A stretch of DNA of 64,000 nucleotides from an uncultured Collinsella sp. (GTDB lineage: Bacteria; Actinomycetota; Coriobacteriia; Coriobacteriales; Coriobacteriaceae), in NCBI GenBank assembly GCA_958407995.1, contig CATYJU010000007.1, positions 1,005 through 65,004 of the forward strand, given 5' to 3'. Both the position numbers and the translations under genes were made by a program. A model generated the notes under the pieces. The model was not told the DNA's origin and made no database searches. It was given only the letters and a program-made list of their open reading frames with translations. This document shows positions 29,820 through 59,272 of the stretch, in pieces; positions within the stretch are counted from its first letter, which is position 1, and each line of letters starts with the position of its first letter.

Positions 29820-29960
29820 TCCTCTCTTGTAGGCGCGGCGGCGATGATGCCGCGTAGTTGTCTAGAGGATATGGCATGGGAATACAGCAGCGCAACGGAA
29901 ATCGGCGGACGGCAGGTAGCGGCAGGTGGATGGGGATGGGCGGGGCGGCCCGTCGGTTTA

Positions 29961-30257
29961 TCTCAATCTGTAACAGTTACGCGGCAAAACCGGGTCTTAC
30001 TGTTACAGATCGAGACATTCCTCTCGGCCCATCCTCAACAATCTAGATCTGTAACAGCTAGGCCCACTTTTGGCCCCTATCTGTTACAGATCGAGACAAA
30101 CCAAACCCGCCTGCTAGAAAATCTAAATCTGTAACAGTTACTCGGCAAAATCCGTCCCTCGTGTTACAGATTTAGACAAACACGACCCAACCCACCGGTA
30201 TATCTCGATCTGTAACACCTAGCCGCCCAAATCGGATCTAGATGTTACAGATTGAGA
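29961..30257. repeat. Family D tandem array: 4 units of a 55-bp hairpin (TCTNNATCTGTAACAG - 23 nt - CTGTTACAGATNNAGA) at an 80-81-bp period.
   Basis: The units are at 29961-30015, 30042-30096, 30122-30176 and 30203-30257. The same family recurs at 59137-59272. Confidence 0.85.
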
Positions 30258-30305
30258 TTTTGTTTGGGAAGTTGAGAGCTGGGTCGAAAACATTGACCCG
30301 CAATA

Positions 30306-30343: not shown

Positions 30344-30394
30344 TCTTGGTCGCGGGGGCAGGATTTGAACCTACGACCTCCGGGTTATGAGCCC
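30344..30394. repeat. Island attachment-site direct repeat: a duplicated 3' 48 nt of tRNA-Met plus 3 nt (a partial, non-functional tRNA copy).
   Basis: This 51-bp stretch is identical base for base to 41861-41911. The sequences diverge immediately outside the repeat. Confidence 0.9.
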
Positions 30395-30684: not shown

Positions 30685-32233
30685 ATGCCGAAGGTCACGG
30701 GCTGCGGCGAGATCGAGGAGATCGAGCGGGGCAAGGTCCACAGGATCAGGCACCATCTGGGTAAGGACCCCGCCACGAGGAAGTACATCCGCTCCCCGAA
30801 GAGGACGGTGCACGGCACCAAGTCGGACGTGAGGCGGGCGCTCGAGGAGTACCGCCGCGAGCTGGAGAGTGGGTTCGCCAACCCCGACAAGGTGACGGCG
30901 CCCGAGCTCGGGTGGAGGTGGCACGAGCAGCGCAAGCTCCTCAAGAACCTCTCGCCGCTCACGCACAAGACCGACGAGTGCGAGCTCAAGAAGGCGGAGC
31001 GGTGGTTCGCGGGAGTGCTCGTGAGCGACCTGTCGCTGCTCAACATGGTCTACGCGGACCCGCGCGAGGAGCACGGCATGTCGCAGCGCGGCGTCCACAA
31101 GCTCAACGCCGTCATGTTCAGGTGATGGACCTCGCCGTGAAGGAGCACCTGACCGAGCACAACCCCTGCCGCGACGTCGAGGTCTCGCGCCCGCGCTCGG
31201 CTGAGAGGACCCCGCTCACGCTCGAGGAGGCGATCTCGCTCTGTCAGGCGCTCCACGGCGACGAGCTCGACGACAGGCGCGTCGCCATCTGGCTCGCGCT
31301 CGCGACCAGCGTGAGGCGTGGCGAGGCGCTCGGCCTCACGTGGCGCTACGTGGACTTCGACAACATGCGGGTGTTCATCAAGTACCAGTACACCGAGAAC
31401 AAGGCGCTGCGCGAGACCAAGAACCGCCGGTCGCGCTGGATCGCGATCGACGACGGGACGGCGCGGTGTACCTGCGCACCTGGAAGGCCGTGCAGGTGAG
31501 GCGGATGCAGGTTCAGGGCCTCTCCCAGACCCCGAACACCCCGATGTGCTCGGACGGCGACTTCGGCTTCCACGACCCCGACAACTTCTCGACGTGGCAG
31601 AGGGGCTACTTGATCGAGCACGGCCTCGGCAGGATGGAGGAGGCCGAGGAGGGCGGCCGCAAGCGGAGGCGCTACGTCGGCTACGACTTCCACGAGCTGA
31701 GGCACACGCAGGCCACCTTCCTGATCGGCAACGGCATCGACCCGAGGAGCGCGCAGGGGAGACTCGGCCACGAAGTGTCGAGCATGACGATGGACGTGTA
31801 CGCGCACATGATGGGAGGGAACGACCGCGAAGCCGCCGATCTCATGGGGAGGCTGCTGCGAACCGGAGGCGGCGGGCAGGAGGCCCCGGGCGAGGAGGCG
31901 CGCGCCAATCAGGCGGCCGGGGAGCCGGTGAGGCTCACCGTCGTCGGGCCGAACCCGGACCTCTGCCCCTGTCCCGGCGCGAAGCTCGTCGAGCGCGAGG
32001 TCGTGCGCGACGGCCGCGCCGCCTGGGTCGAGGAGTGGCGGATCACGGCGTCCTCGGCCGCCGATCTCCTGGAGATCCAGCGCGGGGCGGGCGCGCCCAT
32101 CACCATCGACGGGAGCCGGATCACCGTCATGGCGAGGAAGGCTTGGGGCCGACGTCGCCACGACGAAGCACACTCCCTCCCTAACGTCAGAGGTCATCGC
32201 CGCTGGACCGGCAGGCGACAAAGCTCAGGATGA
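30685..32233 (+). pseudogene. Tyrosine recombinase/integrase split over three reading frames (two apparent frameshifts).
   Basis: Frame 1 covers 30685-31125 and ends ...HKLNAVMFR*. The frame starting at 30912 continues with VMDLAVKEHLTEHNP...SVRRGEALGLTWRYVDF...RWIAIDDGTA. The frame starting at 31340 continues with AVYLRTWK...HELRHTQATFLIGNGIDPRSAQGRLGHEVSSMTMDVYAH. The catalytic R, H-x-x-R and Y are all present but lie in different frames. Confidence 0.8.
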
Positions 32234-32266: not shown

Positions 32267-33238
32267 TTGAATCGAGGAACCATGAGCGATTTTGATGCCG
32301 AGAACGAATCGGTCGAAACGAGCGCGCCGATAGCCCTGGTCGATTCCGCAAACATAGAGACCCTAATCCATACCGTCCGTGGGCAGCAAATCATGCTCGA
32401 CACCGATCTCGCTCGGTTATACGAGGTAGAGACAAAGAATCTCAACCGCGCCGCCGCACGCAACGCCGACAGATTCCCCGAGGACTTCCGTTTTCAACTG
32501 ACCAAGGAGGAGGACGAGTCTTTGAGGTGCCAAATTGGAACCTCAAAGACCATGGAGGGCCGCGGCGGGCGGCGTTACCTCCCCTATGCCTATACCGAGC
32601 AGGGCATAGCCATGCTGTCCGGCGTGCTACGCAGCGAAGTGGCGGTGCAGACCAGTATCAGTATCATGAGGGCGTTTGTCGCCATGCGCCACTTCCTCGC
32701 CGAAAATGCCACCCTGTTTGAGCGGCTGCGCGGTGTCGAGTTGAGTCAGGCGGCGTTTCAGCAATCGACCGACGAGCGTTTCAACCAGGTGTTCCGCCTG
32801 CTCGAAGGCAAGGTAGAGAAACCCCAGCGGATCTTCTTCGCCGGGCAGATGTTCGACGCCTTCAGCCTGCTGACAGATCTCGTGGGCCGCGCCGAGCGCG
32901 AAATCTCCCTCGTGGATGGCTACGTAGATGTCCACACCCTGAACGTCCTCGCAAAGAAGCGCAAGGGCGTCGCGGTGACCGTCTACACGTCCGGCAACCG
33001 GCTCACGCAAGGCGACGTCGACGTGTTCAACGCACAGTACCCGCAGCTCACCGTCCGCCGCACCAGAACGTTCCACGACCGCTTCCTTATCCTCGACAGT
33101 GCGACCGCATATCACATCGGTGCATCCCTCAAGGACGCGGGAAAGAAATGCTTCGGCATAGACCTCATCCAAGACGAGGAGCTGACGAAGATGCTCATCG
33201 AGAAACTAAAGCTCCTCGATGAGCATCAAACGGCTTGA
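32267..33238 (+). CDS. ORF6N (KilA-N-like DNA-binding) domain protein with a C-terminal PLD/HKD-like domain.
   Basis: 323 aa. The N-terminus reads IHTVRGQQIMLDTDLARLYEVETKNLNRAAARNADRFPEDFRFQLTKEE...YAYTEQGIAMLSGVLRS. The C-terminus carries an HKD-like motif, FHDRFLILDSATAYHIGASLKD, with Arg in the Lys position. Confidence 0.75.
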   Translation: MNRGTMSDFDAENESVETSAPIALVDSANIETLIHTVRGQQIMLDTDLARLYEVETKNLNRAAARNADRFPEDFRFQLTKEEDESLRCQIGTSKTMEGRGGRRYLPYAYTEQGIAMLSGVLRSEVAVQTSISIMRAFVAMRHFLAENATLFERLRGVELSQAAFQQSTDERFNQVFRLLEGKVEKPQRIFFAGQMFDAFSLLTDLVGRAEREISLVDGYVDVHTLNVLAKKRKGVAVTVYTSGNRLTQGDVDVFNAQYPQLTVRRTRTFHDRFLILDSATAYHIGASLKDAGKKCFGIDLIQDEELTKMLIEKLKLLDEHQTA

Positions 33239-33309: not shown

Positions 33310-34299
33310 TCAAAGCAGGCCCTGGTCCGCAAGCCTTCGATAATGCTTGCCGAGGAGCGTCAACCGGCAGGACTTGCTCTCCATCGCCGCGTTCCACATA
33401 TGGTCGGCGCCAACTGGAACCAGAAGACCATGCCGGTTGTATTTCTGGAGCAGAGAGAACACCAGGTTGTTCCTGGGCTCTGCTGGAGGCATAGCGTCTG
33501 TTCTTCCCTCGTCCCTTGGCTCATACGACGGATCCAGCCTGTATTCATAGTCCTCTGTTGGGAAGAGCTTTTTCAGCTTCCGCAAATCATCGAGTGAGAT
33601 TGCGGGATCGACTTCGCGCAGCGACACGAAGCTGTCCGTGTTCGTTTTGAAAACGGGTCTTTGGTCCCACATGCCAAGCGATTGATCGATGTGCGCATAG
33701 ACGCTGCCCGGCGTGATGCTGCCCGTCAGGTTCGCCGCAGCACCCTCTAGGGCGTTTATGAGGAGACTTGTAAAAACGCCATGCCCCTTACGCTCAAGCG
33801 AGGGCTGATCGCTTCGCGAGGCGGTGAGTATGGTGACGCCCTCCGAGATTGCGGCATGGTTCTCCATGCCCGGGACCGACCCTGCCGCCCCCGAATAGCA
33901 GCTGTCAAGGATAACGATTCTGTGGCGCGCGCTCGAGCCGTTCGCCAGATCAACGAGTTCCCTCAGAGAGAGCCCCTCGTCTCCCCGAGTGGAATCAGAC
34001 CCATTGATAAACCCGCCGGTTGACTCGATATACCCGTGTCCAGAAAAGTAGAAGAGCGCTATTTCGGCTTTTGACTGAAACAGCCTGCGCGCCTCATCTT
34101 TGATTGCAGCGCGATTCACGACATGGTCTGGGCCGGTTGCATACAGCTCCTTGCAGTCAAAGTTTCTGCTCCGAGAGGAATCCCCGTTGCGCTTGAGGAG
34201 GCGCGCGACCTCCTCGGCATCGTTCACGCAACCCGAAAGATTTGGTATGCGCTTGTCAGAATAGTAGTTAACTCCAACTACTAGGGCCATTCTGTCCAT
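33310..34299 (-). CDS. Caspase-like peptidase (C14 family) with a ~100-aa C-terminal domain of unknown function.
   Basis: The start is taken at MDRMALVVGVNYY (ATG 34299, with AGGAG 7 nt upstream). The catalytic His sits in FYFSGHGY and the catalytic Cys in VILDSCYSGAA. The longer track ORF (to 34461) overlaps the upstream gene. Confidence 0.85.
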   Translation of the reverse strand: MDRMALVVGVNYYSDKRIPNLSGCVNDAEEVARLLKRNGDSSRSRNFDCKELYATGPDHVVNRAAIKDEARRLFQSKAEIALFYFSGHGYIESTGGFINGSDSTRGDEGLSLRELVDLANGSSARHRIVILDSCYSGAAGSVPGMENHAAISEGVTILTASRSDQPSLERKGHGVFTSLLINALEGAAANLTGSITPGSVYAHIDQSLGMWDQRPVFKTNTDSFVSLREVDPAISLDDLRKLKKLFPTEDYEYRLDPSYEPRDEGRTDAMPPAEPRNNLVFSLLQKYNRHGLLVPVGADHMWNAAMESKSCRLTLLGKHYRRLADQGLL

Positions 34300-34309
34300 C
34301 GCCCAGCTC

Positions 34310-34678
34310 CTACAGACTGTCGATGAAATCTTCGATATGGCTCCAGGTCCATGAAACCGTGCGTACACCGGGAAGATCAGTTCGGTCATCGCTATACGCC
34401 CAGATTCCCAGCACCTTCTTCCCCTCCTCGCGCGCGCAGCCGATTTCCCACTTTTCCCCACTTGAGCTCAACGAGTTCTTGCTTACGAGCGCAATCACGC
34501 CGTCGGAGCGCTTGATGCGAGTGCGGACCTTCTCCTTCCAGGCGGTTGCGTACGGCTCCTTGACCGACATATCGATATACTCGAAGGGCGACTTCGTGTT
34601 GAGCGACTGACCCTTCAGAAAATCGCGTTGACGTTCGTCCTCGATTGCAAACGCAACGAATACCGTCTTCTTTTCCAT
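34310..34678 (-). CDS. Stand-alone TIR-like domain protein (ThsB/DUF1863-like), 122 aa.
   Basis: The start is taken at MEKKTVFVAFAIEDERQRDFL (ATG 34678, RBS GAAAGGTGAG). The motifs VFVAFAIED and SSSGEKWEIGCAREEGKKVLGIWAY are present. The track ORF extension to 34909 has non-protein-like composition. Confidence 0.8.
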   Translation of the reverse strand: MEKKTVFVAFAIEDERQRDFLKGQSLNTKSPFEYIDMSVKEPYATAWKEKVRTRIKRSDGVIALVSKNSLSSSGEKWEIGCAREEGKKVLGIWAYSDDRTDLPGVRTVSWTWSHIEDFIDSL

Positions 34679-34836
34679 AAATCTCACCTTTCGCATATAA
34701 AAACAGCTCCTTATCAGTATAAACCTGACCGGTTGCGATTCTCCACCGGAGCGATCCACCTCATTACCGCGCCCATCTGCACGTCGCAAGGATCCCACCT
34801 CCAGCGGGCTCCGATAAAAGTGGGGAGTGGAAAATA

Positions 34837-35316: not shown

Positions 35317-35832
35317 TCAGGGAGCAAAGCGCAAGGCGCCGCAGGGCAAGCGCCTTCCGCTTTGCCCGCAGGCAGAGATTCTACGGGCCGGAAGGCCGGA
35401 AGGGAGCGGGACATGAAGGCGAGCGAGGTCATCGTGGAGCCGGAGGGGCGCAGGGACCGCAGCGCATGGGACAGGGGCTCCCGGCTCGAGCGCCTCCGGC
35501 CCGCCCTCGCGGTACAGCCTGCACCAGCGGTCGAGCGATGTAGCGGCGGCGATGCCGAAGCGGGCCATCGCCTCCGACCGCGGCATCCCCTCGTCCACGA
35601 CGGCCCTCGCGACGGCGAGCTTGGCCTCCATGTCGTAGGTCCTGCGGCTCTCGCCCATCCCGATCAGCCCCTTCCTCCCGGTTGCCCGGTACGCGTAGAG
35701 CCATTTTCTCACCGCCGGGGCGGGAACGTCGAGCTTCTTGGCCGCGAGTTCGAAGCCGAGGCCAGCCTCGAACAGGTCGGCGGCGCGTGCCCTCATCTCG
35801 CGACCGTATCTTGCCTTCTTCCTGCGGGACAT
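35317..35832 (-). CDS. IS3-family OrfA-like helix-turn-helix protein, probably a remnant (degenerate C-terminus, no OrfB).
   Basis: The start is taken at MSRRKKARYGREMRARAADLFEAGLGFELAAKKLDVPAPAVRKWLYAYRATG...MPRSEAMARFGIAAATSLDRWCRLYREGG. It has the same layout as the 26938-27342 product. Confidence 0.55.
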   Translation of the reverse strand: MSRRKKARYGREMRARAADLFEAGLGFELAAKKLDVPAPAVRKWLYAYRATGRKGLIGMGESRRTYDMEAKLAVARAVVDEGMPRSEAMARFGIAAATSLDRWCRLYREGGPEALEPGAPVPCAAVPAPLRLHDDLARLHVPLPSGLPARRISACGQSGRRLPCGALRFAP

Positions 35833-35883
35833 TTCCGATGCCTCCCTTTTCTCGAACCTTAATTTCAAAGTCCAAGAAATGGG

Positions 35884-36273
35884 ATGCAGTTCACCGTCGG
35901 GGCGTTCCTCGAGTACTGCGAGCTGCGGGGGTTCCGCTCCCCGGACAACGACCCCCACGGCTGGGCGCGCGTCTGCCAGGCGGTGGCGAACTTCATGGGT
36001 GCCGACGGCCTCAGCGTGGGCATCTCGCGCTACGAGGGCGACGCGCGCATGGACCCGGGCGACAACGGGATCTACGTCATCGAGGGGTGGCACATCGCCG
36101 AGCGCCTGCGGGCGGAGTACGACCCCGGCTGGGAGCCCACCGGGATACGGGATGTCCGCCCCGAGGATGAGCAGCGGGCCCACGACCGCGCCGAGATGCT
36201 GCGCGCCATCGACGCCTCGCGGCCCGAGGGCCAGAGGCTCGGGGCCTACCTCGATGCCGAGTGTTTTCCGTAA
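35884..36273 (+). CDS. Hypothetical 129-aa protein, divergent from the HTH gene.
   Basis: The composition is protein-like (MQFTVGAFLEYCELRGFRSPDNDPHGWARVCQAVANFMG...). The overlapping minus-strand ORF looks like antisense junk. Confidence 0.45.
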   Translation: MQFTVGAFLEYCELRGFRSPDNDPHGWARVCQAVANFMGADGLSVGISRYEGDARMDPGDNGIYVIEGWHIAERLRAEYDPGWEPTGIRDVRPEDEQRAHDRAEMLRAIDASRPEGQRLGAYLDAECFP

Positions 36274-36392
36274 CATCTAAATCGACAAAAACGGCAGCAT
36301 AAAGTCGAAACTTCCCGCAAGGGGCATGCTGACCAGATCGCAGGGCCATCTTGGTGGTGCTTCGTATCTACCAAAGGAGGCCCGGAGAGGAA

Positions 36393-36650
36393 ATGATCGG
36401 CATGACCGACAAGAATTCTATACGCCTGCTGTGGCGGCAGGGGGACAGCGTCGCCGAGGTCGAGCGCAAGACCGGCGTGAGCCGGGACACCGTCTACAAG
36501 TACCGCAACATGGACGACTTCAGCCCCGAGCCGCCCGCGAGGCGGGCGCAGGGCTCAAAGCTCGACCCGTACAGGCCCCTGATCGAGTCCTAGCTCAACG
36601 ACAACATGCGCAGCGGGCGCAAGCAGCTACGGCACGCGGGGCGCGTATGA
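36393..36650 (+). pseudogene. IS21-family transposase (IstA) N-terminal fragment interrupted by a stop codon.
   Basis: MIGMTDKNSIRLLWRQGDSVAEVERKTGVSRDTVYKYRNMDDFSPEPP...SKLDPYRPLIES is followed by TAG. An IstA-like continuation (LNDNMRSGRKQLRHA) then ends. There is no DDE domain and no istB. Confidence 0.65.
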
Positions 36651-37133: not shown

Positions 37134-38696
37134 ATGGATAAAGTCAAAACGGCCTTCCAGAACTTTGGCCGCGTTATCGTCGACCCTATTTTGTACCTTT
37201 CGGTAACGGGCATCATTTTGGCCATCGCCACGGTATGCTCGCTCGGCAGCGGAGTTGTCGCGGATCTGGGCACGCTGCTCTCCGCGGCAACCAACTCCGC
37301 GGTGATCGGCAACCTGCCGGTGATTTTCGCAGTCGGCCTAACGGCAGGCTTCGCAAAGAAGCAAAAATCCAACGCGGCAGTGTTTGGACTTATTAGTTAC
37401 CTCATGTTCCTGTATGTCAACAACGCCTACCTGACGCTCACCGATCAGCTGGCAAAAGCCGGCGCGATGGGTCTGTATGGCACTGGCCAGGCAACGGTAC
37501 TGGGTCTTCAAGTTACCGATGTCAACGTCTTCGGCGGCGTACTCATCGGATGTTTCTGCGGTTGGCTCTATAACAAACTGATCGATGTAAAGGTATCGGA
37601 CTATATCCGGATTTACGGCGGACCCCGCCTGGCACTTCTGGCGATGATCCCGCTGAGCATTGTCTTTGGCATCGGAGCGACTGTCGTGTGGCCCCCTATC
37701 GCCAACGCCATCAGCAACGCGTCTTCATTCATCGCAGCCTCGGGCGGTCTGGGCGTTTTCATTTACGGCTTCCTGAACCGCGTCCTCGTACCTCTCGGCA
37801 TGCACCACTTTATGTGGATGCCGTTTGACTACTCCGCGATTGGCGGCACGGCGGTCGTCGCCGGCCAGAGCGTTTCCGGCGCAGCAAACATCTTCTATGC
37901 CGAGCTTCCCCATATCGCCGACGGATCCCTCACCACAGTCGACCCCTCTGTCCGCTTTGCCATGTTCGGCTTTGGCAAGGAATTCGTAACCCTTGGCACC
38001 GTGCTCGCAATGATTGCAACTTCCCGTCCGGAGAATCGAAAAGCCGTCGCAGCCATGCTGGTGCCAATTTACATCACCGCCATGCTCTCCGGCATCACTG
38101 AGCCGCTCGACTTCATGATCCTGTTCGCGTCTCCGATTCTCTGGGTTGCCTACAGCCTGTTCTACGGACTGGGCGAGATGCTCCTGTTTGTCCTGGGAGT
38201 CCGCTTGCTTAACATGTACGGTGGCATCGAGCTGCTCACGCTCAGCCTGCCTTTGCCAATGGGCGTCACCAAGTTCCCGATTTACATCGTCTTGGGCATC
38301 GTGTTTGCCGCCGTTTCGTTCGTCGTGCTGGCGATGGTGATCAAGAAACTCAACCTCATGACGCCCGGTCGTTCTGCAGAGTGGTCTGCCGAGGTCTCTG
38401 GCGATGCCAACGCTCTCGAGTCTTCCGGAACGCCGGAAGTCGACGCAAAACAGCAGGAGATGGTGCAAAACATCATCGACGGCCTTGGCGGTAAGGACAA
38501 TATCAACACCATGGGCTGCTGTATGACTCGCCTCCGTGTCGAGGTCAAGGATCCCAACAAGGTCAACGAAGAGATCATCAAGAAGGCTATTGACAAGGGC
38601 TTATTTAAGAACGGCACTAATGTCCAAATTATCGTGGGAACCAACGTGCACTCCGTCTACGACCTGCTTCGTCCCATCCTTAATCTGGAAGATTAA
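37134..38696 (+). CDS. PTS glucose/maltose-family EIICB component (alpha-glucoside type, GlvC/MalP-like).
   Basis: 520 aa with a ~10-TM EIIC domain followed by an EIIB domain carrying NINTMGCCMTRLRVEVKD. Confidence 0.9.
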   Translation: MDKVKTAFQNFGRVIVDPILYLSVTGIILAIATVCSLGSGVVADLGTLLSAATNSAVIGNLPVIFAVGLTAGFAKKQKSNAAVFGLISYLMFLYVNNAYLTLTDQLAKAGAMGLYGTGQATVLGLQVTDVNVFGGVLIGCFCGWLYNKLIDVKVSDYIRIYGGPRLALLAMIPLSIVFGIGATVVWPPIANAISNASSFIAASGGLGVFIYGFLNRVLVPLGMHHFMWMPFDYSAIGGTAVVAGQSVSGAANIFYAELPHIADGSLTTVDPSVRFAMFGFGKEFVTLGTVLAMIATSRPENRKAVAAMLVPIYITAMLSGITEPLDFMILFASPILWVAYSLFYGLGEMLLFVLGVRLLNMYGGIELLTLSLPLPMGVTKFPIYIVLGIVFAAVSFVVLAMVIKKLNLMTPGRSAEWSAEVSGDANALESSGTPEVDAKQQEMVQNIIDGLGGKDNINTMGCCMTRLRVEVKDPNKVNEEIIKKAIDKGLFKNGTNVQIIVGTNVHSVYDLLRPILNLED

Positions 38697-38734
38697 CAGT
38701 CGCCTGATCGACAGACGACAAGCAAGGAGACCTC

Positions 38735-39004
38735 ATGTTGACCAAAACGTTACATTCAATCCGAGGCATGTTCGAACGCTTGCTCAACATGTACAAAGAA
38801 AAGTCGACAAGGGGTCTTCTCGCTCTGATGGCTGCATTCGTATGCGGTTTTATCTGGCCACTCCTTGGTCTACTCGCTGCGGTTTGGACCCGGCATTCAG
38901 GAAAGCACGCGGATGCGGGCAGCGTTGCGGGCATGGCGGCCGTTATCAACATCGTTACTTACTTCATACAGATAGCGACCAGGATTGTCTGCGGCTCGAT
39001 TTGA
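38735..39004 (+). CDS. Small hypothetical membrane protein.
   Basis: 89 aa with two hydrophobic segments, located between the PTS and GH4 genes. There is no other support. Confidence 0.4.
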   Translation: MLTKTLHSIRGMFERLLNMYKEKSTRGLLALMAAFVCGFIWPLLGLLAAVWTRHSGKHADAGSVAGMAAVINIVTYFIQIATRIVCGSI

Positions 39005-39014
39005 TTTGAAAGGC

Positions 39015-40352
39015 ATGAACAACATGAACGGATACAAGATTGTAATCTGCGGCGGCGGCAGCACCTATACCGCCGGTATCGTCAAAGACCTGATTGATCA
39101 AAAGGACGAACTGGGGATTCGTGAGCTTTGGCTCTATGACATCGACAAGGAACGCCAGGACACGGTCGCTGTGGTGGTTAAGGCAGTTATCGATGACCTT
39201 GCTCCCGAGATTCCCCTGCATGTAACTGTCGACCCCAAAGAAGCATTTACAGATGCGAACTTTGTTATGGCGCAGATGCGCGTGGGCGGGCTCAAGATGC
39301 GTATCCAAGATGAGCAGATCAGCCTGCGCCATGACGTAGTCGGCCAGGAGACCTGCGGAGCAGGTGGCATGGCCTATGGCATGAGGACCATCTTCCCCAT
39401 GTGCGAGCTTGTCGATTTCTGCGAGGAGTACGCCTGCAAGGACTACTGGATCGTCAACTACTCCAACCCCGCTGCCATCGTAGCCAAGGCGATGCACAAG
39501 CTACGTCCAAACGCTCGCATTCTCGACATCTGCGATATGCCAGTAGAGATTGAAGCCCGCATGGCGGAGATTTTGGGCTGCGAACTCAGCGACATTGAAG
39601 TCGACTACTTCGGCCTCAACCACTTTGGGTGGTTTACCAACGTGCGTTGCAAGGGCGTCGACGTTACAGACAAGCTCAAAGAGCATGTGCGTAAATTCGG
39701 CTACATTTCCGAGGCAAGCCTCAATGACGCCTTGGTAAAGGACCCCGATTGGGCCCATACCTTCAAGAATGCGGCGACGATTTCCACGCTATTCCAGGAT
39801 TACCTCCCCAACACCTATTACCAGTACTACCTGTTGCCCGATGCCTGCGTGGAATACATGGACATCAATAACACGCGTGGCATGCAGGTCGTAAACGGCC
39901 GCGAAAAGCGGATCTTTGATGCTTCTGCGGCGCTTAAGCGCGGTGAAAAGGTCGATCTCACGCAATTCTATGTAGGCGTCCACGGCAGATTCATTGTCGA
40001 TGTCGTCAAGTCTCTAGCGCATGACCTGCGACATCGCCAGCTGGTAATTGTGCCCAATAATGGCGCAATCGAGAATCTCTCGGACGACGCGACCGTCGAG
40101 ATTCCGGCGTACATCACCGATCGAGGAGCCGAACCGGTCCGCGTCGGGAAGATCCCCCGCTTCTACAAGGGCCTTATCGAACAGCAGGATGCCTGCGAAG
40201 GCCTTGTGGTCGAAGCCGTTATCGAAGGCTCCTACCAGAAGGCACTCGAGGCCTTCACCCTCAATCGCACGATCCCCTCAGCGCGCGTGGCTAAGGAAGT
40301 CTTGGACGACATGATTGAGGCGAACAAGGGCTATTGGCCTGAACTGAAGTAG
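39015..40352 (+). CDS. Glycoside hydrolase family 4 6-phospho-alpha-glucosidase (GlvA/MalH-like).
   Basis: The start is at MNNMNGYKIVICGGGSTYTAGIV (NAD-binding motif). The GH4 motif is ILDICDMPVEIE. The RBS GAAAGG lies upstream. Confidence 0.9.
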   Translation: MNNMNGYKIVICGGGSTYTAGIVKDLIDQKDELGIRELWLYDIDKERQDTVAVVVKAVIDDLAPEIPLHVTVDPKEAFTDANFVMAQMRVGGLKMRIQDEQISLRHDVVGQETCGAGGMAYGMRTIFPMCELVDFCEEYACKDYWIVNYSNPAAIVAKAMHKLRPNARILDICDMPVEIEARMAEILGCELSDIEVDYFGLNHFGWFTNVRCKGVDVTDKLKEHVRKFGYISEASLNDALVKDPDWAHTFKNAATISTLFQDYLPNTYYQYYLLPDACVEYMDINNTRGMQVVNGREKRIFDASAALKRGEKVDLTQFYVGVHGRFIVDVVKSLAHDLRHRQLVIVPNNGAIENLSDDATVEIPAYITDRGAEPVRVGKIPRFYKGLIEQQDACEGLVVEAVIEGSYQKALEAFTLNRTIPSARVAKEVLDDMIEANKGYWPELK

Positions 40353-40426
40353 AGAAACCATCCAAATAGCAAAAGCACAAAAGGTGGCCTCAAGGCAAAA
40401 ATGCTTTGGGGTCACCTTTTGTATGA

Positions 40427-41284
40427 CTAAATCTCCGCAAAACTCGTAAAGATGAACGAATCGGCCTCGTGTTTTACACGATAGTTCTCTTGATAATCCT
40501 GATTGAATATAAGCGAATAAATAACCTGAAGCGTATACGTGAGCGAGATCATGGAAGAGTAATTGGCAACCTTTCCAATCACGCGCTCTGATTTTGGAAT
40601 GAGCAGGACAGTATCGCATTGCCTGGCGAGCGCCGAATCAGAAAACGCCGTGATTAAACACGGCTTGATTCCGCGCTCGGAAAGAGCGGCGGCGTATTTG
40701 GAATAATCATAGTGAATGCCGCTGTAGCTTAGGAATAAAAACAGGTCTCCGGGCCTACCGTTCTTAACGTGCAGTGTCTGCAGGCCCCCGTCGTCTGCCA
40801 TGGTGACATGACGATCGAGCTTGAGAAGATTGTTGCGAAAGATACATCCCGCCAGATAGCTTTCCCCTTTAGCAAAGATGTAAATTCGCGGGGCGCTAAG
40901 AACTGCCTTGGCGATTATGCTCAATTTGGCGCTATCGAGCTCAATTTTCGTTTGATCTATGACGCCCTTCAAGAGATTTGCAAGGTTGCCCTCGATGGCC
41001 TCAATTGAATCGGTACTGCCAAAAGGACGATTGTGATCGACAGTGGCAGCCAGAAGATAGTCTCCGCTTATCTCCTGGATGAGCTGCATGATCAACTCTC
41101 GATAGCCGCTTAGGCCCAATTTCTTACAAAAGCGGATGATAGTCGCGTTCGAAGTGTAAGTCTCCTGTGCGAGCTTTGCCATAGTGAGGGTCTTAAGGTC
41201 GCCGGTATGATTGAGCAGATAGGTAGCAATGGCTCGGTCGGTTTCATTAAAAGACGCGCTGTTACGCAGGCTGTCAAGAATCAT
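40427..41284 (-). CDS. RpiR/MurR-family transcriptional regulator (HTH_6 + SIS).
   Basis: 285 aa with the HTH MAKLAQETYTSNATIIRFCKKLGLSGYRELIMQL followed by a SIS domain. Confidence 0.9.
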   Translation of the reverse strand: MILDSLRNSASFNETDRAIATYLLNHTGDLKTLTMAKLAQETYTSNATIIRFCKKLGLSGYRELIMQLIQEISGDYLLAATVDHNRPFGSTDSIEAIEGNLANLLKGVIDQTKIELDSAKLSIIAKAVLSAPRIYIFAKGESYLAGCIFRNNLLKLDRHVTMADDGGLQTLHVKNGRPGDLFLFLSYSGIHYDYSKYAAALSERGIKPCLITAFSDSALARQCDTVLLIPKSERVIGKVANYSSMISLTYTLQVIYSLIFNQDYQENYRVKHEADSFIFTSFAEI

Positions 41285-41860: not shown

Positions 41861-41911
41861 TCTTGGTCGCGGGGGCAGGATTTGAACCTACGACCTCCGG
41901 GTTATGAGCCC
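41861..41911. repeat. Island attachment-site direct repeat (the copy inside the intact tRNA-Met).
   Basis: Identical to 30344-30394. Confidence 0.9.
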
Positions 41912-41940
41912 GGCGAGCTACCAGACTGCTCCACCCCGCA
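41864..41940 (-). tRNA. tRNA-Met (anticodon CAT), initiator type.
   Basis: The 77-nt sequence reads TGCGGGGTGGAGCAGTCTGGTAGCTCGCCGGGCTCATAACCCGGAGGTCGTAGGTTCAAATCCTGCCCCCGCGACCA. It is very close to the E. coli tRNA-fMet sequence as I remember it. The anticodon stem has three consecutive G-C pairs, the 1:72 pair is weak (U-G), and CCA is encoded. Confidence 0.9.
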
Positions 41941-59136: not shown

Positions 59137-59272
59137 TCTCAATCTGCAACAGTTAGAGACCAAATATGCCGCCTGGTGTTACAGATCAAGACGTTGGGCT
59201 GACGGCCGAACGGGTCATCTAAATCTGTAACAGTTAGAGCCATTTTCGCTGGCTTGGTGTTACAGATCGAGA
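59137..59272. repeat. Family D hairpin array with 2 units at an 81-bp period.
   Basis: The units are at 59137-59191 and 59218-59272. They have the same arms as the 29961-30257 array. Confidence 0.85.

Follow-up and report, generated by a model that had tools for sequence, protein, structure and literature searches.

The 64,000-nucleotide stretch of Collinsella DNA analysed here (hereafter the window) carries two adjacent genes on the minus strand, at 33310-34678, that encode a stand-alone TIR-like protein and a caspase-like (C14) peptidase. The original prediction had linked such pairs to type IV Thoeris, an anti-phage defence system, and had described this pair as a member or a divergent relative of that class. 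The pair comprises the following features.

34310-34678, minus strand: thsB-like TIR gene of the PsTIR subtype, 122 amino acids (aa) plus stop; putative synthase of the type IV Thoeris signal
34445-34447, minus strand: codon of the TIR catalytic Glu78, in a KWEI context
34300-34312, minus strand: gene junction with the TIR TAG stop, AGGAG and a 10-nucleotide (nt) spacer, read directly
33628-34299, minus strand: caspase-like (C14) protease domain, PF00656, residues 1-224 of the 329-aa effector
34036-34038, minus strand: codon of caspase His88, in a FYFSGHGY context
33898-33900, minus strand: codon of caspase Cys134, in a VILDSCYSG context
33310-33627, minus strand: C-terminal domain of about 105 aa, residues 225-329 plus stop; presumed sensor of N7-cyclic ADP-ribose (N7-cADPR)

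The TIR protein is encoded by an open reading frame (ORF) at 34313-34678 on the minus strand, with the TAG stop codon at 34310-34312, as read from the sequence. An alternative start at 34696 is possible and would give 128 aa; homologues favoured the 122-aa start. The protein matched the Pfam family PF08937 (ThsB_TIR) with a score of 32.7 bits (E 1e-7; cutoff 21.2), and the ThsB models of PADLOC also matched it, PDLC00418 being the best (E 3e-7). The stand-alone 122-aa TIR-like protein was therefore present as described; of the two profiles that had been named for a hidden Markov model (HMM) check of it, PF08937 scored above the Pfam cutoff and PF13676 below it. The glutamate that had been noticed in a W-E-I context is E78 in KWEI, which aligned with E79 of PsTIR, the TIR protein of the experimentally validated Pseudomonas sp. 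1-7 system, and did not vary among 14 TIRs with identities as low as 30%. A PDB sequence search with the TIR gave no match. The nucleoside 2-deoxyribosyltransferase family PF05014 was also considered; its score was under the cutoff, the match was ascribed to a shared fold, and this identity was rejected.

Between the TIR stop codon and the ATG of the caspase-like gene (34299-34297) lies a spacer of exactly 10 nt (gagctgggcg), and the TIR stop codon together with the next bases forms AGGAG (tAGGAG) 7 nt upstream of that ATG. Both elements were read in the sequence and agreed with the tight coupling that had been claimed for the two genes. Promoter and terminator scans gave results equal to those of shuffled sequence at best, and an Rfam search over 29.7-35.4 kb gave no match.

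The effector ORF (33310-34299, minus strand) opens at the ATG at 34299-34297, ends with the stop codon at 33310-33312 and encodes 329 aa. The HMM check proposed for this C14 peptidase returned a significant match to PF00656 (Peptidase_C14; 56.3 bits, E 4.8e-15), and the PADLOC 'caspase' model PDLC02987 also matched the protein (E 3e-20). Besides PF00656, Pfam yielded only a sub-cutoff match to CDC4_D (E 0.007), and none of the SIR2, SLOG or Macro plus transmembrane domains of type I and type II Thoeris effectors was found in the effector by Pfam. The NCBIfam family NF047832 (caspase_w_EACC1) was rejected, as the effector scored 100.4 bits against its cutoff of 140 bits. Both catalytic contexts were retained, with H88 in FYFSGHGY and C134 in VILDSCYSG. 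We aligned 82 members of the caspase family, namely the window protein, 79 genome copies and the effectors of the validated Pseudomonas sp. 1-7 and E. coli 328 systems (PsCaspase and EcCaspase), and found H88, C134, D27 and D132 to be invariant.

The AlphaFold2 model of the effector had a pLDDT of 89.9 and a pTM of 0.85. In a Foldseek search of the PDB, the best matches of the protease domain were the MALT1 paracaspase, caspases and metacaspases (E of about 1e-11 to 1e-9, TM of about 0.5), and the fold search with the whole effector revealed generic caspase, paracaspase and metacaspase folds and nothing else. A PDB sequence search with the caspase gave marginal metacaspase matches alone, with E of at least 0.2. 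MALT1, metacaspases and caspases were 12-19% identical to the window protease, and all of them lacked its C-terminal domain. The invariant D27 lies in a GCxND motif that aligned with the same motif of the T. brucei metacaspase MCA2. In Arg/Lys-specific metacaspases, the Asp of this motif lines the S1 pocket.

Type IV Thoeris was named by Rousset et al. (bioRxiv 10.1101/2024.10.24.620036; a later preprint cites Science 387:510 (2025)), who validated pairs from Pseudomonas sp. 1-7 and E. coli 328 and found that PsTIR E79Q and PsCaspase C129A each abolish defence. The E. coli 328 proteins, EcTIR and EcCaspase, were also used by Chen et al. (Nat Commun 2026, PMC13243611). For comparison with the window pair, PsTIR (123 aa) was translated from the cloned Pseudomonas sp. 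1-7 DNA in Table S2 of Rousset et al. and confirmed to be JF55_15340; PsCaspase, also written ThsE, was taken from the Pseudomonas sp. 1-7 assembly as the 328-aa Peptidase_C14 gene overlapping the PsTIR stop; and EcCaspase was recovered from RefSeq E. coli genomes by means of the EcTIR DNA.

Residues 2-122 of the window TIR aligned without gaps to residues 3-123 of PsTIR, at 69% identity (E 3e-63), and E78 corresponded to E79. The window caspase showed 52% identity to PsCaspase over residues 3-329 versus 2-328 (E 5e-123), with C134 corresponding to C129, and 43% identity to EcCaspase over the full length (E 5e-88). The gene order in Pseudomonas sp. 1-7 is the same as in the window, the protein lengths are nearly equal (TIR 123 vs 122 aa, caspase 328 vs 329 aa), and the two systems share the catalytic Glu, His and Cys as well as the C-terminal domain. 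They differ at the junction, where Pseudomonas sp. 1-7 has a 4-nt gene overlap (ATGA) and the window a 10-nt spacer, and in their hosts, Pseudomonas on the one hand and a Collinsella (Actinomycetota) gut anaerobe on the other. The E. coli 328 effector belongs to the same family as the window caspase, with a C-terminal domain that is 52% identical, whereas its TIR (EcTIR, 133 aa) is of the other TIR subtype; a BLASTP comparison of EcTIR with the window TIR revealed no significant similarity (E 1.8).

The detection rule of Rousset et al. is a PF08937 or PF13676 TIR gene within one gene of a caspase-like gene on the same strand. The window pair agrees with it, being adjacent and co-oriented with a 10-nt spacer and a PF08937 score above the cutoff, and it combines full-length homology to PsCaspase with the TIR Glu, the caspase Cys and His, and a conserved C-terminal domain. 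We therefore consider the pair to be, with high confidence, a plain member of type IV Thoeris, of the Pseudomonas sp. 1-7 subtype, carried as cargo of a tRNA-Met-integrated island in Collinsella. The identification of TIR and caspase-like pairs with type IV Thoeris was correct, and, of the two options that had been left, full-length orthologues at 69% and 52% identity speak for a member and not for a divergent relative.

A genome scan limited to one genome per species yielded 314 relatives of the caspase, and TIR adjacency was judged in the best 80 of these. A TIR gene lay beside the caspase gene in 78 of the 80 best loci, as would be expected from the gene-neighbourhood conservation that the original prediction had proposed to check. 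In 60 of the 80 the TIR was of the PsTIR type and on the same strand as the caspase gene; 18 more had a TIR of the EcTIR type upstream. In about half of the 60 PsTIR-type loci, the TIR match ended 8-40 nt before the caspase match, and in most of the others 420-720 nt separated the TIR from the caspase match downstream of it, and an EcTIR-type gene often lay within this interval. The two exceptions among the 80 were a truncated caspase in Collinsella acetigenes and one Ginsengibacter metagenome-assembled genome (MAG). Around two relatives of the caspase, a 122-123-aa ThsB_TIR gene was directly upstream at each of the eight sites examined in metagenomes and genomes. Table S1 of Rousset et al. 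lists six of the 80 genomes under type IV Thoeris: Arthrobacter sp. Soil762, A. subterraneus NP_1H, Tessaracoccus SIT6, Tetrasphaera/Nostocoides australiense Ben110, Flavobacterium fontis and Flavobacterium sp. CF108.

At the protein level, a search with the caspase gave 7978 matches among the 8000 candidates scored, and its 90%-identity cluster held 644 member sequences. Full-length relatives with about 58% identity were present in Pseudomonas, Legionella, Aeromonas, Alcaligenes, Dickeya and others. The caspase itself recurred at 98-100% identity in six genomes, five of them labelled Collinsella (uncultured Collinsella UMGS448 and UMGS989, Collinsella MAG2841, and Collinsella sp. AF33-16 and An7) and one a Firmicutes bacterium AF25-13AC MAG. 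The host is a Collinsella, and the Coriobacteriia-like gut anaerobe that had been suggested was thus correct. Copies of lower identity were found in Candidatus Aphodovivens (94%) and Curtanaerobium (64%). An 80%-identical relative sits among AbiE, SocA_Panacea and RelA_SpoT genes. Together with the PDC-S05 candidate defence gene beside the window pair and the prophage location of the E. coli copy, this forms a defence context that speaks for the assignment.

We also observed that a single caspase family is combined with two barely alignable TIR partners, one of about 122 aa (PsTIR type) and one of about 133 aa (EcTIR type). In many Bacteroidota and Chlorobiota loci, both subtypes stand in tandem upstream of the caspase, which corresponds to the 'additional TIR' column in Table S1 of Rousset et al. 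In E. coli strain 165, the pair (NZ_CP020509.1, 3886579-3887956) lies inside a lambdoid prophage, between a lysis cassette (holin, GH24 endolysin, Rz1-like) and the antiterminator Q gene, a typical position of a prophage 'moron'.

The region beyond the protease domain, which had been described as a C-terminal stretch of about 100 aa with no recognised motif, proved to be a domain of about 105 aa without a significant match to a solved fold. Its identity (residues 225-329) was 53% to PsCaspase and 52% to EcCaspase, while the corresponding values for the protease domain were 53% and 42%, so constraint on the C-terminal domain is no weaker than on the protease domain. In the 82-member alignment, the invariant residues of this domain were R228, L239, F246, L255, E260, Q285, L292, H300, M301, A304, A305, T314, G317 and L323. 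When the domain was modelled alone with AlphaFold2, the pLDDT was 92.8. A PDB fold search with this model revealed nothing at E of 0.001 or below; there was a weak resemblance to MarR/PadR-type winged-helix folds (best E 0.05, TM of about 0.48), which is too weak for membership of that family to be claimed. An exhaustive HMMER search with the domain recovered 461 representative clusters, nearly all of which were caspases of 310-345 aa or short fragments, so the domain looks specific to this effector family. No fusion of the domain to other effectors was supported among the 461 representatives; one odd match, a leucine-rich-repeat protein of 1155 aa, looked like a compositional false positive. 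The original prediction had named this domain as the obvious candidate ligand sensor of the effector, a hypothesis that Rousset et al. had already put forward. The structurally unsolved domain is an interesting point, although one of the family rather than of this locus.

The published behaviour of type IV systems is phage-triggered, Arg-specific promiscuous proteolysis that leads to abortive infection (Rousset et al.). With phage T6 in E. coli, the capsid vertex protein Gp224 was reported to be required for triggering and not sufficient alone, and direct binding was not detected. In published work, N7-cADPR made by EcTIR was used to activate PsCaspase. The signal of EcTIR thus activates PsCaspase even though the TIRs are barely alignable, and the signal is therefore shared across far more divergence than lies between the window pair and the Pseudomonas pair. 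In the window, both genes are intact, adjacent and co-oriented, the catalytic residues are present and the C-terminal domain of the effector is conserved. The mechanism of the Collinsella pair likely follows that of the validated orthologues. By orthology with them, phage infection would trigger the 122-aa TIR, which would convert nicotinamide adenine dinucleotide (NAD+) to N7-cADPR; this signal would bind the caspase-like effector, probably at the C-terminal domain in a dimer. The activated effector would then cut many proteins, EF-Tu among them, as a promiscuous protease specific for Arg, and the infected cell would stop growing or die before phage release, that is, undergo abortive infection.

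Several observations weigh against the assignment to type IV Thoeris or against parts of it. The promoter scan gave one weak sigma-70-like site, no more than expected by chance; sequence and fold searches found no solved structure of a type IV effector in the PDB copy; and the C-terminal domain is so far a hypothetical sensor. In addition, the window caspase differed from the family consensus (at least 90%) at 13 positions, which also distinguish it from the PsCaspase system as substitutions at otherwise conserved positions. Most of these departures were conservative. Those that stood out were Y135 beside the catalytic Cys, P166 and N182, where 96%, 97% and 99% of members have His, Tyr and Asp, respectively.

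Such departures, at Y135 and at the two near-universal positions P166 and N182, might indicate that the effector of the Collinsella clade has changed, its winged-helix-like C-terminal domain reading a modified signal or conferring another cleavage specificity in an anaerobic gut actinobacterium; we regard this as very improbable. The pair as a whole might likewise be a functionally shifted variant, with a different ADP-ribose-derived signal or protease cleavage specificity in this clade. The distant phylum of the host would fit such a shift, as would the caspase length, which is 329 aa in the Collinsella/Curtanaerobium clade and 324 aa in most of the closest homologues. However, the TIR is 69% identical to PsTIR, all invariant residues of the C-terminal domain are retained, Tyr or Phe at position 135 is also seen in other family members (Dyella P0065, P0017), and the sequence-unrelated EcTIR still makes a signal that activates PsCaspase, and we consider the shifted variant to be very unlikely. 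If true, a shifted effector would be a useful contrast case for how N7-cADPR is sensed.

The preferred assignment, a plain type IV Thoeris pair, was also compared with other known systems. As in type I and type II Thoeris, a ThsB-type TIR would make an NAD-derived signal for a partner effector. The effectors of those types, SIR2-SLOG in type I and Macro/transmembrane in type II, are unlike the window effector, which is a protease, and the signal of the window pair would by orthology be N7-cADPR, in contrast to the 3'cADPR or His-ADPR of types I and II. For this comparison, the genes considered beside the pair were an ORF6N/PDC-S05 gene and IS fragments. Gasdermin-activating caspase-like proteases, the SAVED-CHAT/PCaspase proteins of type III CRISPR systems and caspase_w_EACC1 share the C14 fold and the His/Cys dyad with the window effector, and PCaspase, too, has been proposed to act as an Arg-directed executioner with promiscuous activity. 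Among the annotated genes flanking the pair, none for gasdermin, CRISPR or SAVED-CHAT was seen.

The surroundings of the pair contain the following features.

30344-30394, strand not applicable: distal attachment (att) repeat at one end of the island, duplicating the 3' part of tRNA-Met
30685-32233, plus strand: tyrosine integrase, frameshifted, with PF00589 matches split over two frames
32282-33238, plus strand: ORF6N / PDC-S05 candidate defence gene (PF10543, E 5e-32; PADLOC PDC-S05, E 2e-123)
35317-36600: transposase-type helix-turn-helix fragments (insertion sequence, IS), next to the TIR gene
37134-41284: sugar cassette inside the att repeats, with phosphotransferase system (PTS) EIICB, GH4 glycosidase and RpiR
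41864-41940, minus strand: tRNA-Met (ARAGORN) with att repeat 41861-41911; island integration site

A perfect 51-nt direct repeat (30344-30394 and 41861-41911), which covers the 3' part of tRNA-Met, delimits an island of about 11.5 kb. The integrase, the att repeats and the IS fragments are in line with the tRNA-Met island that had been proposed; the tRNA itself is not close, as it lies 7 kb away from the TIR-caspase pair. The G+C content was 0.53-0.60 over 32.2-35.2 kb and 0.65-0.73 on both sides, in agreement with the more AT-rich segment that had been noticed, and the sugar cassette (0.50-0.60) was likewise below the core. The island was found at 95-99.9% DNA identity in several Collinsella genomes, some with deletion variants.

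Because a mobile island is nearly unchanged across several Collinsella species, the pair might serve mainly as an addiction or stabilisation module of the island rather than in phage defence, and the E. coli 328 operon has been reported to be slightly toxic on induction (Rousset et al.). However, an antitoxin-like partner is absent, the validated orthologues need phage infection and TIR catalysis for activation, and the same pair is also found among defence genes outside mobile islands; we judge this role to be highly improbable.

Compared with the metagenome contig L011, which is identical otherwise and has an intact ORF of 368 aa, the integrase contains an insertion of 2 bp (GT, at about 31466-31467), so the island is probably immobile in this genome. 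In both the window and L011, a separate 146-aa ORF precedes the integrase, with an overlapping stop/start (GTGATGG). In Collinsella acetigenes, the segment with the sugar cassette, the TIR gene and the 5' part of the caspase gene is missing beside the tRNA, and caspase residues 135-329 alone are kept, abutting the tRNA. Together with the frameshifted integrase and the IS fragments that adjoin the TIR gene, this caspase remnant could suggest that the window pair is also a decaying, non-functional remnant on a degraded island. We consider this the least probable of all the readings, since neither ORF is interrupted and every catalytic and invariant residue is in place; moreover, six genomes carry the caspase at 98-100% identity, and 644 sequences fall into its 90% cluster.

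The neighbouring gene that had been called KilA-N/PLD-like encodes an ORF6N domain (PF10543) with a PDC-S05 match; from our own reading of the motifs HDRFLILD...GASLKD, the C-terminal half of its product may be phospholipase D (PLD)-like, which retains that part of the description. The gene is convergent with the caspase gene and is context outside the type IV system; it accompanies the pair in close Collinsella relatives and not in more distant ones. PDC-S05 is a candidate single-gene defence system in PADLOC. An 18-nt inverted repeat at 33190-33227 lies in the 3' end of the ORF6N gene.

As an ordinary orthologue of a known defence family, the window pair adds little conceptually. The novelty that had been implied for it was not upheld: Rousset et al. 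have catalogued type IV Thoeris in hundreds of genomes across phyla, Actinobacteria included, and DefenseFinder has a profile for its effector (Thoeris_IV__ThsA_Casp4, used in PMC13069673). All that is mildly new is that the pair is present in Collinsella and that the tRNA-Met island which carries it is small and widely shared. No Collinsella entry was found in the Actinobacteria part of Table S1 of Rousset et al., and the literature searched held nothing relevant on Collinsella and Thoeris. Type IV Thoeris is thus carried in a human-gut genus, a lineage not in the original 2017-era catalogue, and the pair is common in gut metagenomes, with possible consequences for Collinsella phage-host dynamics and for phage-based manipulation of the gut microbiota.

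Just outside the distal att repeat, at 29960-30259 of the window, we also observed a palindromic unit of about 58 nt in four tandem copies 80-81 nt apart, with the arms ATCTnnATCTGTAACAg ... cTGTTACAGATnnAGAt around a variable centre of 21-25 nt. Rfam gave no match to the unit, and the inverted repeats trivially account for its strong predicted fold (z -11.5). A fifth copy is present in an intergenic gap at 59224-59266, giving 5 matches to the pattern versus 0 expected, and the unit could be a repetitive extragenic palindromic (REP) or miniature inverted-repeat transposable element (MITE)-like element or an operator array.

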